64,000 nucleotides of DNA from the NCBI GenBank assembly GCA_951406725.2, contig OX597816.1, positions 103,354,001 through 103,418,000 of the forward strand, written 5' to 3'. This stretch comes from Octopus vulgaris (lineage: Eukaryota). Below the pieces are notes generated by a model. That model ran no database searches and was not told the origin of the DNA. It saw only the letters and a program-made list of their open reading frames with translations. The position numbers and the translations under genes were made by a program. This document shows, piece after piece, positions 3,180-46,772 of this stretch (positions are counted from its first letter, which is position 1; each line of letters begins with the position of its first letter).

Positions 3180-4140
3180 CCGAATCCTATTTTGGATAGA
3201 CCACCCCAAGCGTTTTACTAATTTTCAAACATATTTTCAGAGGTAGTGTTCACTTCTCGTAGCAATTTTTCTTTCAATTATTTTCTGTCATCGGAAATCG
3301 ATGATCTTTCAGAGTAGTTTCTAACTTGGGAAAGAAAGTTAAATCTACGCAGAGATGAAATCCAGAAAGGGAAGTTGCTCTGGGGTGAAACTCCCTTCCA
3401 ATAAGGTATGATGAGCGTGCAAGAGCTTTGTGTGGTACAACATCCAAGTTTTGTTTGTCCATGCCTCAACCGTCTCCCTCGTAACTACTTTTGTCAAATG
3501 CTACATACATATATTATATATATATATATGAAAAAAAAAAAGAGGAGCATCACCTTCACATGTAAGTAGCCTTGAGGAGGTTGCTGCGACGATAATGTAC
3601 TCCACTGCAACAACGATCTTTTTACACAGCTATGTTTCGTCACGTGTTATAACACTTTTCAGAAAGTTTCTATCAACATCCGAACGACTGAACGGAACTC
3701 AATTTTATTTTGGTTTATCTCTCAGCAGACCTGGGAAAAATTTTTGCTGTGACACGATGCGTCTTGAATTTGTTCTCTTACCACCTTACAACACGAAATT
3801 TCACAGATACCTACCTCTTTAGAAACTTTACGGGCAATGAAGCGACAATTATTTTCACGATGACAGTAGGAACTTTCACAAAATGATTGTGTGCAGTCCA
3901 AACACTCCTTCACGTTGTTTTGGCTACATTACAATGCATAGTTCCAGTAAAAAATTTTCTCAGTTTGAAACAAAATTTCTTTCAAACACCTTGTTATTCC
4001 AAATTCATTCTTCCGTGTAACAAATCATGAAGTACATCATACAAGTGAGGTGTAATGATAGATTAGGCTGAAAATGACGCTCACCAATACGTAGCATTGC
4101 AGTCACATAAACTTTGCGCCAAATCTGGTTGACCCGGTGT
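3180..4140 (-). mobile_element. Decayed mariner (Tc1/mariner) transposase relic, interrupted by a TA/A run at about 3505-3541
   Basis: Minus-strand frames give KFCFKL, IARKVSKEVGI, HRVTAK, EAWTNKTWMLYH (cf. W.LHHDNAPAH) and FFPKLETTLKDHRF (cf. LFPKLK..LKG.RF), with frameshifts and stops. Confidence 0.75.
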
Positions 4141-4216: not shown

Positions 4217-4256
<40 letters not shown>

Positions 4257-4257
<1 letters not shown>

Positions 4258-4591
4258 TGAAACTAGGTAAATATAAGCCTTCGAACAGAGACGTCAGTGG
4301 CGACACCTGCGGGGTCTGACTGCGCTACATTGACAAGGGGCAATACCCCGAAACGCGTCTGTAGCTGTCGGACTGGCAGTGTGAAGTGGCTGACCTCCCT
4401 TGTTCGAAGGTTATAATGGATACAGATCGTGTATCAATAGCTATCTTAAGGCGGTGGCCTCATGGAGCTGACCAGGGGCAGCGATTATTCTTATATCTAT
4501 AAGAATGCCATATTAATATGGCGATAACAATTAATTTCCAGTAAACGCTGTCGTAATCTCTTTTATAGAGACTTAGTAATTTTAATATTTC

Positions 4592-4595
<4 letters not shown>
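4257..4595 (+). mobile_element. Structured ~340-bp element between (TA)n tracts; Penelope pLTR-like or retrozyme-like monomer
   Basis: GC-richer island bounded by TA microsatellites. Contains a hammerhead fold, a 144-nt hairpin (4272-4415), hairpin attcttata/tataagaat (4487-4506) and the perfect palindrome gccatattaatatggc (4507-4522). Confidence 0.6.
4324..4365 (+). ncRNA. Type I hammerhead ribozyme (minimal, U3-A8 core variant)
   Basis: Stem I GCTACA(4324-29)/TGTAGC(4360-65); core TTGACAA(4330-36); stem II GGGG/CCCC with loop CAATA; GAAA(4350-53); palindromic stem III ACGCGT; GTC cleavage triplet ending at 4359. Confidence 0.8.
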
Positions 4596-4647
<52 letters not shown>

Positions 4648-5559: not shown

Positions 5560-5670
5560 CTATCTCTCAGCAGACCTGGCACAAATTTTTGCAGTGACAC
5601 GATGCGTCTTGAATTTGTTCTCTTACAACCTTGTGACACGAACCTTCACAGATACCTACCACTTCAGAAA
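5560..5670 (-). mobile_element. Second mariner fragment, near-copy of 3716-3826
   Basis: tatctctcagcagacctgg...gtgacacgatgcgtcttgaatttgttctcttac...cacagatacctacc occurs at both loci. Confidence 0.75.
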
Positions 5671-6961: not shown

Positions 6962-7273
6962 GGTGGGGTGCTACACACATACATACATATACACAGACAC
7001 ATACACACATACACACATATACATACGTACAAACATACATGCATACATAATACATACATACATACATACATACATACATACATACAAACTTAATAGACTT
7101 GTATAAATGAGATATACTTACATTATGCAAATTAGTAGATCCAATTCTCTGCCGGGTGGCAGCAGCGTTTAGAGAGGTTAAATAATAAACACTTAGAGAA
7201 GTTAAATAACGGCAGTAGTCATTGTTAAATTTTTCACTATATTCTAATCCATTGTTAATATACCAATGACAAG

Positions 7274-7677
7274 AAGGCGGCGTGCTGGCAGAAACGTTAG
7301 CACGCCGGACGAAATGCGTAGCCGTATTTCGTCTGCCGTTACGTTCTAAGTTCAAATTCCGCCGAGGTCGACTTTGCCTTTCATCCTTTTGGGGGTCGAT
7401 AAATTAAGTACCATTTACACACTGGGGTCGATATAATCGACTTAATCCGTTTGTCTGTCCTTGTTTGTCCTCTCTGTGTTTAGCCCATTGGGGGAGTAAA
7501 GAAATAGGTATTTCGTCTGTCGTTACATTCTGAGCTCAAATTCAGCCGAGGTCGACTTTGCCTTTCATCCTTTCGGGGTCGATAAATTAAGTACCAGTTG
7601 TGTACTGGGGTCGATCTAATCGACTGACCACCTCCCCAAAAGTTTTGGGCCTTGAGCTTAGAATAGAAAAGAATATT
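7274..7677 (+). mobile_element. tRNA-derived SINE family B, dimeric
   Basis: Head aaggcggcg.gctggcagaaacgttag with B-box-like gttcaaattcc. A second body restarts at ggtatttcgtc (7507) after the tail gtaaagaaata. Confidence 0.9.
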
Positions 7678-9643
7678 TCAGTGGCAAAGTAGAGTGGCTG
7701 AAACTGCAGAAAGCAATATTACACTTTTCACGTTTCAAGTTCAAATCCCCTGTAGTATCATGTTTGTCTTTCTTTTCACCGGATCGATAAAATTGGTAAA
7801 CACCAGTAATGTATATCTCTTTCTCTCTGTCCTTTATGAAAAATGTTAAGAAAAACAAACGCTGTGAATATTTTACCTCAAGCCAGCCTTTTGATCGTGA
7901 AAAATTGCTCTTATGAAAGTATGTTTGGATGTATTTATACTGCATTCCGTTTTTTGTATAAACTGATTCTTCATTTTATATTAGCCCGAATGTCTGTTGT
8001 AGTTAGTTGCTCCTGTATTTCTTATTTAAGTCACCATAGCTGGATTAAATTATAATCAAAGATGTTCTAGCCATGGTCACTCCATAATTTGTATATCTAA
8101 AACATACTGCCTGATGCAACCTTCTTTTTTGAAATGATATGGTGTGATATGAGGGACATTTGGTGGTTATGTTTTACCAGGTCGAATAACCACATAGACC
8201 ACGTCCAATATTTCGCCATAAGTCGAATTTGAAACCATCTAACGCAGTCTCTAAAACCACATATGGAAAATAAATAGATAAATAAATAAATACATCAGCT
8301 GTTCAGATCTGAAGGCCAAAGCAATCATTGAATATATATATTGTATATCTATAAACTTACAAAATTACATATTCATTAGTTTTCTCCAAAAGTTCTTTTG
8401 TACTTGAACTTGAAATTTGTTCATCGTACTAAAAGAGGTAGAACGCCACCACCGAAAAGTAGAGCAGCATATCAATCTTATGAAAAATAAATAAATAAAT
8501 TGTGGATTTGTCTTGAGCTAAAGTTAGAAATCACTCCTTCCAATCTCATGTTCTACATGGTTTATTTGCTTCTAGATAAAAATCACTTCCTCTCATCTCT
8601 TCTTCCTTGAAGTTATATTTGACCTTCATGAGGAGGAGTAAGCAGTTTCACTTTTCCTCTCAAACTCTTATATAAGCGAACTATTATGCAATTTACTTCA
8701 AACATTAAGGTTATTTCATACTATGAGGAATATCTTCATATTTGAAAAAATGGTATTTAATTAAGTTCTATTTTAAACCTTCAGAAAATCATGCTTTAAT
8801 TTTAAAAGATTAATTTTTACTCTAAGAATCAGATGCACACCTTACAATTAATAAGACGGTATATTTTTTATTGATTGTTCTGTAAGTTATTGCTGCATTC
8901 AGTCAACATTTTCAATTTGAATTTTGATAATCCTCACTTAATTAATCCTTTAACTGATTTACTTTTTCATCTGGAATTTAAAAGGTGGAGTTTAATTATG
9001 GCTCAAGGAGAAAAAGGAATGTTTATTGACTTTCTTTTCGTCTCCTTGCACTCCAGGAAGGAATCGAAACTTCATCAAGTTGAAGTTCATTTGCTGAGTG
9101 TTCTGCTTCAATTGAGGCAAACCAAAAGTTATTGCGGAACAGGGATAGAATTCTAAAAGGATACATTTTCTTTTTGAGAAGGAAACAGAAAAGGAAAGCT
9201 GGAGAAGAAATTGGGCAGAATGGTACAATGATTATGATTACTATCCAAACATTTGAAAGTGGCGAAGTCGAATAAACGTATACTCGTACAGACTTATATT
9301 TTTTTCTATCGACCAGGGAAGGATAAAAAGCTAAGTCGCTCCTCCCTTACCTAATTTGTTTTCAGATATTACCAAATACCTTAAGGACATTTTCACATTG
9401 CTCTACCGATTCTGTAATCAACTTCAATATTAACCAAAAATCAACTAAATGAAAACCAAAAGAAAAAAGTAAGCATCTTGTCAGAATTTGGATAATTATT
9501 AATGTCATCAATATATGTCTTATGAAAGTATGTGTTTCGATGTATTTATAGTATTTATATTACATTTCGTTTTTGTATAAGCTGATTCTGCATTTTATAT
9601 TAATCCGAATGTCTGTTGTATTGCGTTTCTTACATAAGTCACC

Positions 9644-44756: not shown

Positions 44757-45761
44757 GTAAGTTATCCTCCTTTGAAATATATTTTATTCTTATATATAAC
44801 TAACATGGCTTGAAGAAGAATATGCCATACCATGTCTATTTAATGACCTTTTCTCTACGTGAGTTCATTAGCAGTGCACATAAATTATGTCCTTGTGACT
44901 CATTAGGTTAGAAAGAAATTCACCTTAAATAGTAACACCTTATGATTCGTAAACACCAATTATTTCATTTCTAATTTCTCAAAATCCAGTTTCTATTTCA
45001 GGCTTCGTAGTTAGGTTTCCCTGGTACTTAACAAGTTTCGCTATTTTCGCTTACCTTTTCTTCAGGCTTCTGAGTTTTGACAGCTTAAACTGCACTTCGT
45101 TGTCATCGCTGTTTAAATATGGCTAAGAATTGTTTGTTTTTTTAAAAAAGACAACGAATTTTTATTAACTATTTTATTTTTGGTACCATTTCATTTAATC
45201 CATTAAAAATAAAATAAAATTGCTTCTGAACATTATTGTTTTTTTTTTTTCTCATAAAACATAAGAAAAGGCGTTATATTATTGTTTTGAAACTAGAAAA
45301 CAACTATCCCAGACTCTCCGTACAAACAATTGTTAATACGATAAAAATACATTCTCTTTATAATTCCAGTAAATAACAGTTCTTTAGAATTAATGCGATG
45401 CGAGGAAAAAATACGGAAGCAATATAGAACATAACTTACATTAAAAAATACATACGGGAGTAATGTGTTCCCGAGAGTTTACCGTAAAGTGAAATCCCGC
45501 GACGCGAAATTAGCTTTCCTATCGATTTTCATGATATAAAATGATGATGCTTTCCAACAAATATGTTCGAAAAGACAAAAGAAGAACAAAAAATAAAAGA
45601 GAAAAAAGCGAGAAATAAAAAAGAGTATAAAGAAAAGAGAAAAAAAGCAATATGATCACTCTTTTAAGCATGAAAATAACACACATTACAATATGTATAC
45701 ATAAAGATATTTCAAGTGAAATATATTAGAATCGTCATATCGTAGTAGGATATGTACTTAC

Positions 45762-46772
45762 CACAAAAAATGTTGACTACTGTCTGAGAGGTAGTGATGG
45801 ATAAGAGTTACTTAGATGATGAGGTACGCTATCTTCTATATTATAGTCAACAACTACTTGAGAGGCGAACTTATTCGAAATTGTTTGATGTTTATGACCT
45901 ATCAAGTTTTTGTACAGCTCGGTATAGAAATTGAAGTCGTTGTAAAAACCCTTTGTAATTACATTCAGGATTAGGGTTGTGAGTTGTCATTGGCAAAAAC
46001 TTGCTGATCTTCCTCTACAAGTTACAATATTTAACAATATTCTTTGCAGTCAGCTTAAGTGCATCTGTTGGAATTTCTGTATTTTCAACGGCATCCTTAG
46101 TTTGCTTTTGTTTTAACAATATCAGCCCATTGTTAAATAAAGTTTCCCTAAGGGACACGAAAGACTCAACTATGTCATCCTACATGACTTTTTCCTGCAA
46201 CATTACATAATCCTTAAGCTTAAGATCAGTAGCCATTCCCTACTCTCTGAAAAAAATACAAATATCCTTGTATAGAACTGTGTGCTTCACAGTTCCAGCG
46301 AAGCGGTATTTGGCTGTTGTGCGCATGCTCACATGTCCGAGATAAGAAGCTTCACGCTAGGGAGAGAGAGCACTGTCGTTCATGCAGTACCGGTAAAAGG
46401 TGGTGTTTCTTTTTGACTTTGCGTGTGTTGTTTTTTAAAAACGTGTTTGTATTCTTGAATGTGATAAAGTGTAGAATTAAATTATTATCCTGCTTGCAAC
46501 TTCAGTGTTGCTATCAGGATTTGAAAAATAGGACAAATTTTCCCCCTTATTTTGTGATTTAGGGGGGATTTTTGAAAAGCAAGGGGTAATTCGCGGCGGT
46601 ATTCAGTGAACAAATTAAACACATTATACGGCAGTGGCTAAAACGTGAACCGATTAAGTTTATGTATAAACATTCTTTTTATATGTTTGTTTCCTTTTAC
46701 ACAATATTAAAACAACGGCTAAAAATTTTCTAAAGCAGCACCCCAACTAATTTTATCTACGAGCCGCTACTG
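45762..46772 (-). pseudogene. Decayed DNA-transposon (probably hAT) coding relic
   Basis: Minus strand MATDLKLKDYVMLQEKVM*DDIVESFVSLRETLFNN...KYCNL* then ILNVITKGFYNDFNFYTELYKNLI in a shifted frame. CAG-starting TIR-like cagtagcggctc at 46772; 46415-46490 matches 12724-12800. Confidence 0.4.

Follow-up and report, generated by a model that had tools for sequence, protein, structure and literature searches.

What kind of element occupies a TA microsatellite at positions 4257 to 4595 of this stretch of the Octopus vulgaris genome (the window, 64,000 nucleotides in all)? A first-pass annotation made from the letters alone had described a ~340-bp non-coding unit between two TA tracts, with a long hairpin, gatac/gtatc and attcttata/tataagaat pairs and a 16-bp perfect palindrome, and had suggested a retrozyme or a Penelope-derived structured RNA element that targets (TA)n. 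Coordinates and motifs are as it described them. We conclude that the copy in the window is probably a truncated member of a young, ORF-less family of animal non-LTR retrozymes mobilised by Penelope-like elements (PLEs). The two labels originally offered are not alternatives, because an ORF-less tandem hammerhead unit here shows a PLE footprint at its insertions.

A young, dispersed family without reading frames

A DNA search of the octopus's own genome (2.8 Gb, 227 contigs) yielded 40 near-full copies at 97–100% identity among the 40 scored of 1,939 candidates. The flanks of the genome copies define a 364-nt ORF-less unit, numbered m1–m364 (window position = m + 4231), of which the window copy retains 339 nt and lacks the first 25. 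The earlier description of the locus as a monomer thus holds as to family membership and fails as to completeness. The copy is 97.9–98.8% identical to three other copies, with changes at 4387 and 4476 that it alone of these four has, and it is the only copy of the unit in the 64-kb window. Taken alone it is an ordinary truncated insertion that cannot by itself yield a full-length monomer or dimer. The locus contains no ORF of 110 aa or more, and Pfam had no match for 18 of the 55 frames in the window that reach this length. Rfam gave no hammerhead and no tRNA-like match on the copy at E≤10; its 24 matches all lie on the TA-rich flanks, below the gathering score. The features of the locus are as follows.

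4225–4256, no strand: (TA)16 tract, left portion of the target microsatellite
4257–4595, + strand: 5'-truncated single retrozyme copy of subfamily A, m26–m364 of the 364-nt unit (family comparison)
4262–4268 with 4571–4577, + strand: 5' arm of the conserved helix closing the unit's multiloop (helix 2)
~4278–4410, + strand: long rod extending hammerhead stem I (fold and alignment)
4324–4365, + strand: predicted minimal type I hammerhead with U3:A8 core variant (read from sequence)
4324–4329 with 4360–4365, + strand: hammerhead stem I, 6 bp
4330–4336, + strand: hammerhead core, U at position 3 and A at position 8
4337–4349, + strand: hammerhead stem II, 4 bp
4350–4352, + strand: hammerhead GAA
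4353–4358, + strand: hammerhead stem III, 6-nt palindrome
after C at 4359 (m128), + strand: predicted cut site
4418–4435, + strand: hairpin with compensatory changes between subfamilies (helix 10)
4487–4506 and 4507–4522, + strand: two adjacent hairpins (fold)
4533–4538, + strand: second fixed 3' end, ~m304, putative reverse-transcription start site 2 (arm mapping)
4536–4595, + strand: ~60-nt tail between both fixed 3' ends (arm mapping)
4595–4644, no strand: (TA)25 tract, right portion of the target, adjoining the fixed 3' end

Searches with exact patterns, which give lower bounds, found at least 451 hammerhead sites genome-wide and at least 2,524 matches to the 27-nt 3' end of the unit, at least 961 of which run straight into the next unit; the controls returned 0 in each case. 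Units measure 360–365 nt at a GC content of 0.40–0.43 and carry no ORF. Sixty full units fall into four clusters of 9–25 members plus 4 single older units, diverging by 2–4% within clusters and 8–15% between them, and head-to-tail arrays reach 5.5 units. The family is young and dispersed, with thousands of copies and at least four young subfamilies, and single-copy status, one of the outcomes that the first-pass annotation had set against its own reading, is ruled out. A pattern for relatives keeping the unit junction alone found 3 sites, all ordinary unit variants, and widely spaced pairs of termini proved to be host duplications. Contigs from four runs that we guess to be RNA contain pieces of the unit at 85–100% identity; such contigs are blind to strand, ends, level and circles, and we draw no evidence from them.

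Several neighbouring features are recorded here for completeness. Host tandem duplications of 2.4 kb (L183/L184) and 1.1 kb (L190/L191) each carry a whole insertion, and a ~780-bp insertion at L023:2014–2797 interrupts the third unit of an array near m170–174. In the window, a 110-bp direct repeat of 90% identity (3716–3825 and 5561–5670) flanks the element and resembles pieces of a DNA transposon. An abundant SINE-like repeat at 7240–7680 has many copies of 77–94% identity across the window.

A predicted hammerhead in a strongly paired unit

The first-pass annotation invoked hammerhead-bearing elements without placing a ribozyme. That reading gains support from a type I hammerhead that we recognise by sequence in the units and, in the window copy, at 4324–4365 of the + strand; its variant core is missed by Rfam. 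The U3-A8 covariant core is known from the minimal hammerheads of the Schistosoma PLE Cercyon (PMC4209133), with which the octopus motif shares the core covariation and a predicted activity as a dimer, and from which it differs in a stem I extended to a long rod, a 4-bp stem II and an ORF-less unit. Across 168 pattern-matched sites, core position 7 varies (C 90, A 40, T 38) and the remaining six letters of the core show differences at 5 sites altogether, in a tally whose search pattern leaves out decayed copies. Stem I shows an A-U to G-C swap, and both changes in stem III are CpG-type transitions. By folding energies, a double-hammerhead fold of two natural dimers is ~7 kcal/mol better than two single hammerheads. 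Both active folds are less stable than the minimum-energy structure, in which the core is buried; for the dimer the difference is 6.6–6.8 kcal/mol.

A genome pattern for other U3:A8 hammerheads matched 114 sites against 69 in the control and brought out no new large family. Older U3:A8 hammerhead-like motifs occur at L034:4010–4090 and L042:4010–4085, in unrelated surroundings and with a short 3' motif in common; they perhaps represent another decayed PLE family. On the − strand of the window, a C3:G8 hammerhead-like motif at ~45010–45065, downstream of decayed reading-frame fragments at ~45800–46400, is possibly an old PLE end.

For the + strand of 4257–4595 the folding energy is −121.7 kcal/mol, whereas 100 dinucleotide shuffles give −87.1 ± 5.0 and none was as good (z −6.9); the − strand gives z −7.1, and circular folds of full units on the sense strand give z −5.3 to −10.3 (25 shuffles each). 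Self-pairing is thus strong, as the first-pass annotation held, though its 'almost entirely' self-complementary overstates a unit in which 62–64% of the bases are paired (circular fold, full sense-strand units). In the model, the rod that extends stem I would hold both cut ends together, and the second of the two adjacent hairpins is the perfect 16-bp palindrome (4507–4522), just upstream of the second 3' end. A short hairpin bridges the m364/m1 junction at the main start site in the circular fold, so this site is present only in RNA that continues past the junction. In an alignment of 20 units, both partners change in 8 of 82 base pairs, one of them in hammerhead stem I, a result equalled in 0 of 500 shuffles; counting further pair types gave no excess (24 against 25.5 in shuffles). 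Since the sample consists of related sequences and the structure comes from the same alignment, we regard the covariation support as modest.

Insertion ends and the copied template

To describe the insertions we mapped arms at the loci of the first 100 of the 2,524 terminus matches, a 3'-selected set of 73 blocks and 117 arms that omits a host duplicate (L184), counts a duplicate block at L190 and a duplicate piece at L193, and drops pieces shorter than ~22 nt as well as blocks that a locus edge interrupts. Of the 117 3' ends, 60 lie at m360–364, 45 at m296–308 and 12 elsewhere; two fixed 3' ends ~60 nt apart thus take in 105 arms here and 98 of 108 in an earlier, partly overlapping set. The 5' ends are scattered. 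We infer that m364 (window 4595) is reverse-transcription start site 1 and ~m304 site 2.

The two ends are also distributed between arms in a regular way. In 42 outward two-armed insertions, 34 use one site per arm, 1 is m364/m364 and 7 have one other end; this sample requires an m364 terminus and is therefore biased against m304/m304 cases. A hammerhead-selected set, which has 10 loci in common with it, contains 24 mixed insertions out of 37, 3 that are m304/m304, none that is m364/m364 and 10 with another end. Targeting of (TA)n, as originally suggested, is borne out by 97 of 115 outer 3' ends lying within 6 nt of (TA)3, against a background of 7.7% of 20,000 random positions. Target duplications of ~9–14 bp occur at several non-TA sites (L006, L025, L027, L057, L064).

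Partial tandems and an inverted 5'-truncated arm are present among the insertions; together with a tail at one end and a (TA)n bias, these are hallmarks of PLEs (PMC8557442). In the Poseidon PLE of the green anole (Frangieh et al. 2024, PMC11167929), likewise, reverse transcription begins at two internal sites that delimit the tail, both strands are nicked, the target is AT-rich and a hammerhead lies near the start sites; the octopus family is similar, its nicks being presumed. The anole element differs in being autonomous with a tail of 30–40 nt (the octopus unit is non-autonomous, with a tail of ~60 nt) and in showing no strand difference in start site in vitro, whereas the two arms of an octopus insertion seldom share a site.

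A cluster of 5' ends at m24–40, considered as a possible transcription start, was prominent in the hammerhead-selected set (13 against 3.6) and was not accepted because it is absent from the 3'-selected set (3 against 3.4). In the latter, 5' ends gather at m166–170 (window 4397–4401; 10 of 117), the base of the long rod, and at m327–334 (4558–4565; 13 of 117), beside a small hairpin. These may be stalls of the reverse transcriptase or favoured sites of arm joining.

What template was copied can be read in part from the length and content of the arms. The predicted cut is crossed by 63 of 117 arms, and 85 passes over it gave 2 stops where 1.9 were expected; 44 arms cross the m364/m1 junction and 38 exceed one unit, the longest reaching 1,998 nt. 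Arms that traverse both cut and junction, show no excess of stops and surpass one unit rule out a cleaved linear monomer as template. Comparing overlapping units within an insertion (pieces of more than 40 nt whose identity to a reference was 92% or higher), we counted 195 variants common to all units, 23 common to some and 454 unique. In subfamily D, units differ by 0.6–1.0% within an insertion and by 2.75% between insertions. Each array, across both arms, is one haplotype, and at L201 an insertion-private variant is common to all 5 overlapping units. The arm and haplotype data fit a circular or an uncleaved template, and a circle explains them most simply.

The cycle that we propose would begin with transcription of tandem copies. 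The palindromic stem III would let neighbouring hammerheads pair and act as a dimer, whose cuts would free unit-length RNA; a host ligase would make this RNA circular, and its single hammerhead would adopt an inactive fold. A PLE protein would then nick both strands of a (TA)n tract and prime cDNA internally, at m364 on one strand and at m304 on the other; reverse transcription would travel around the template over varying distances, and the truncated ends of the two cDNAs would be joined. One-armed copies such as that in the window, two-armed inverted copies and new tandems that restart the cycle would result. Mobilisation in trans by a PLE enzyme is likely. The circle steps, putative cleavage and circular RNA included, we hold with less confidence than the assignment of the window copy itself. 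A more specific geometry, which we offer tentatively and rate at somewhat under an even chance, has a dimer of the PLE enzyme copy one RNA circle into each insertion, priming each nicked target strand at a fixed site of its own, the two sites lying 60 nt apart in sequence, with the hammerhead serving only to make the circle and remaining silent in copying.

Penelope-like elements, rival readings and related systems

We looked for the enzyme near the copies and elsewhere in the genome. Searching 174 loci with two Neptune-type PLE proteins (flanks of 1.2–4 kb) gave matches at 7, and at 6 of these the match apparently lies hundreds to thousands of bases from the unit (L253 mapped inexactly). None of the 174 loci has a pLTR-ORF layout by these two queries, and at the loci examined we found no RT + GIY-YIG ORF between pLTRs, as an autonomous PLE would have; the copies there are not attached to Penelope ORFs, the arrangement that the first-pass annotation had named as pointing to an ordinary pLTR. 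Among 73 insertions, no sequence continues commonly from either end of the unit, and 11 matches between flanks were judged from the table to be microsatellites, local duplications or other repeats at unlike ends. The 31 nearby long frames tested encode RT, Pif1 or endonuclease of other elements, with no GIY-YIG among them.

Only at L193 does a Neptune ORF fragment, in a frame ~78% identical to the young family described below, abut an arm, and it does so at a non-standard end. At L193:1930–2220 (L284) the abutting piece is an old N-terminal fragment of Neptune ORF2, and 238 bp of the junction are duplicated in inverted orientation nearby. Our tentative preference for this locus is an arm whose priming took place in old Neptune sequence.

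Young PLEs do occur in the genome. Their RT + GIY-YIG frames are open over 781 codons, and a cysteine-rich linker, together with the labels used in PMC8557442, places them apparently in the Neptune clade. Like the unit, this family targets (TA)n and has the U3:A8 core; its two 3' ends are separated by 38 nt, and it shows no DNA similarity to the ends of the unit. It is a candidate partner enzyme only. Of 6,136 GIY-YIG candidates 150 were scored, and 50 GIY-YIG loci compared with the unit, which yielded families of Neptune type whose termini are unrelated to it, have the hammerhead core alone in common with it. The weak match of a second family (L111/L114) was rejected, being antisense and AT-rich.

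The young element itself, ~4.7 kb at L104:768–4468 (also at L101–L108 and L110), has two overlapping frames of 479 and 781 codons, stop to stop, where PLEs are reported with a single ORF. A U-UUU-UUA-type slippery heptamer stands in phase for a −1 shift in 9 of 20 scanned loci and in the older fragment L284. No strong structure lies downstream of it (−4.2 kcal/mol), and ORF2 has its own ATG nearby. A literature search turned up no title on a two-frame layout or −1 shift in PLEs.

The readings that compete with a circle-templated retrozyme differ in what they would change. One keeps the same PLE-mobilised element and makes the template a linear uncleaved multimer, or lets the reverse transcriptase jump, so that the hammerhead is baggage or serves RNA turnover only and the circle is unnecessary. 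Uncleaved RNA also explains the free crossing of the cut site, a multimer transcribed from a young homogeneous array or jumping on linear RNA fits the DNA too, and the minimum-energy fold blocks the hammerhead core. Experience elsewhere leans the same way: the anole PLE mainly used unprocessed RNA, no reads ended at the cut, and its hammerhead mutants still inserted (PMC11167929), and 8 of 9 predicted Xenopus retrozyme dimers were uncut in vitro (bioRxiv 10.64898/2026.07.22.740005). Yet the core has been kept through four subfamilies with position 7 alone free, arrays are single haplotypes down to the private variant shared by 5 units at L201, and related mussel, coral and axolotl units do form circles (PMC7229834). 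Truncation at the 5' end, moreover, would be expected to shrink arrays in each generation unless they were regenerated. We consider a linear template unlikely, if well above negligible.

That the copies are ordinary pseudo-LTR fragments, solo 3' ends of an autonomous PLE, is a reading to which we assign very little probability. Every insertion feature is PLE-like, the minimal U3:A8 hammerhead is a PLE-type motif (PMC4209133), the L193 arm adjoins a Neptune ORF fragment, and our queries were Neptune-type proteins applied to flanks of 1.2–4 kb. Such fragments do not, however, account for a 360–365-nt period that lacks an ORF and whose 3' end is linked to the unit start at 961 exact junctions, and the shared continuations, adjoining ORFs and GIY-YIG frames expected of them are missing from the 73 insertions, from the 174 loci searched with Neptune-type proteins except L193, which abuts at a non-standard end, and from the 31 nearby frames. 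A LINE-dependent SINE, a MITE or a satellite spread by recombination is scarcely credible. A fixed 3' end, variable 5' truncation and target duplications would suit a SINE and tandem arrays a satellite, but SINEs explain neither two alternative 3' ends nor inverted arms with a 3' end of their own, and at non-TA sites the unit has no poly(A) or simple-repeat tail of its own, nor did Rfam report a tRNA-like match. Terminal inverted repeats, which a MITE would have, are absent, and the arrays are short and dispersed and end at exact positions.

The retrozyme reading places the family beside known ones. Animal non-LTR retrozymes are described as non-coding units of ~170–400 nt (Cervera and de la Pena 2020, PMC7229834), and at the DNA level the octopus family agrees with them: a short non-coding unit of GC below 45%, a predicted type I hammerhead per unit, head-to-tail copies that include two or more complete hammerheads, and strong self-pairing. 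It resembles the 350–390-bp mussel repeats especially in size, and that group generally in its ORF-less tandem with one type I hammerhead per unit, GC of 40–43%, highly paired fold, thousands of copies and PLEs in the same genome. Its U3:A8 core and 1-bp palindromic stem III recall axolotl HHR_Amex1 and PLE minimal hammerheads and set it apart from those retrozymes, as do its copies, which are mostly short one- or two-armed insertions. Mussel retrozymes are described as being without most canonical loop 1–loop 2 tertiary contacts (PMC7229834). Like the non-autonomous Chlamys PLEs such as MRC1, it is head-to-tail, non-autonomous and probably PLE-mobilised. Those elements resemble their partners at the 3' end, and canonical hammerheads are missing from most of them (PMC8557442); the octopus unit carries a predicted hammerhead, and its core is all that it shares with the 50 GIY-YIG loci compared. 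The words 'octopus' and 'cephalopod' are absent from the main text of PMC7229834, and our literature searches, which did not extend to the repeat databases Repbase and Dfam or to paper supplements, returned no octopus record of the family and no insertion-end analysis of retrozymes.

On this comparison of sequences, the family appears to add to the known animal non-LTR retrozymes one with a clear PLE insertion record. That retrozymes depend on PLEs was proposed in 2020, in passages of PMC7229834 that contain no insertion-end analysis. Li, Clavereau and Pollet (2026, bioRxiv 10.64898/2026.07.22.740005) then drew on co-occurrence and pLTR similarity across 35 species, none of them a mollusc, to conclude that retrozymes of animals derive from PLEs and are non-autonomous, and reported cleavage in 1 of 9 dimers tested in a Xenopus survey. 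In octopus, by contrast, the link is read from insertion ends, no pLTR homologue having been found, and the family is young and abundant enough for the PLE footprint to be directly visible. The weight of the finding thus rests on the family's insertion record and not on the copy in the window. That record also yields a rule for two-armed insertions, each arm having its own start site, and any account of the origin of PLE tails and inverted arms has to accommodate it. Since one genome supplies a short, well-delimited RNA, the exact positions at which copying starts and candidate intact enzymes, target-primed reverse transcription from a circle is now open to experiment. Should the single-circle, two-site geometry be true, three traits of Penelope elements in general (tail, inverted arm and pseudo-LTR) would follow from it, and the 364-nt unit would be a ready minimal substrate for demonstrating it.
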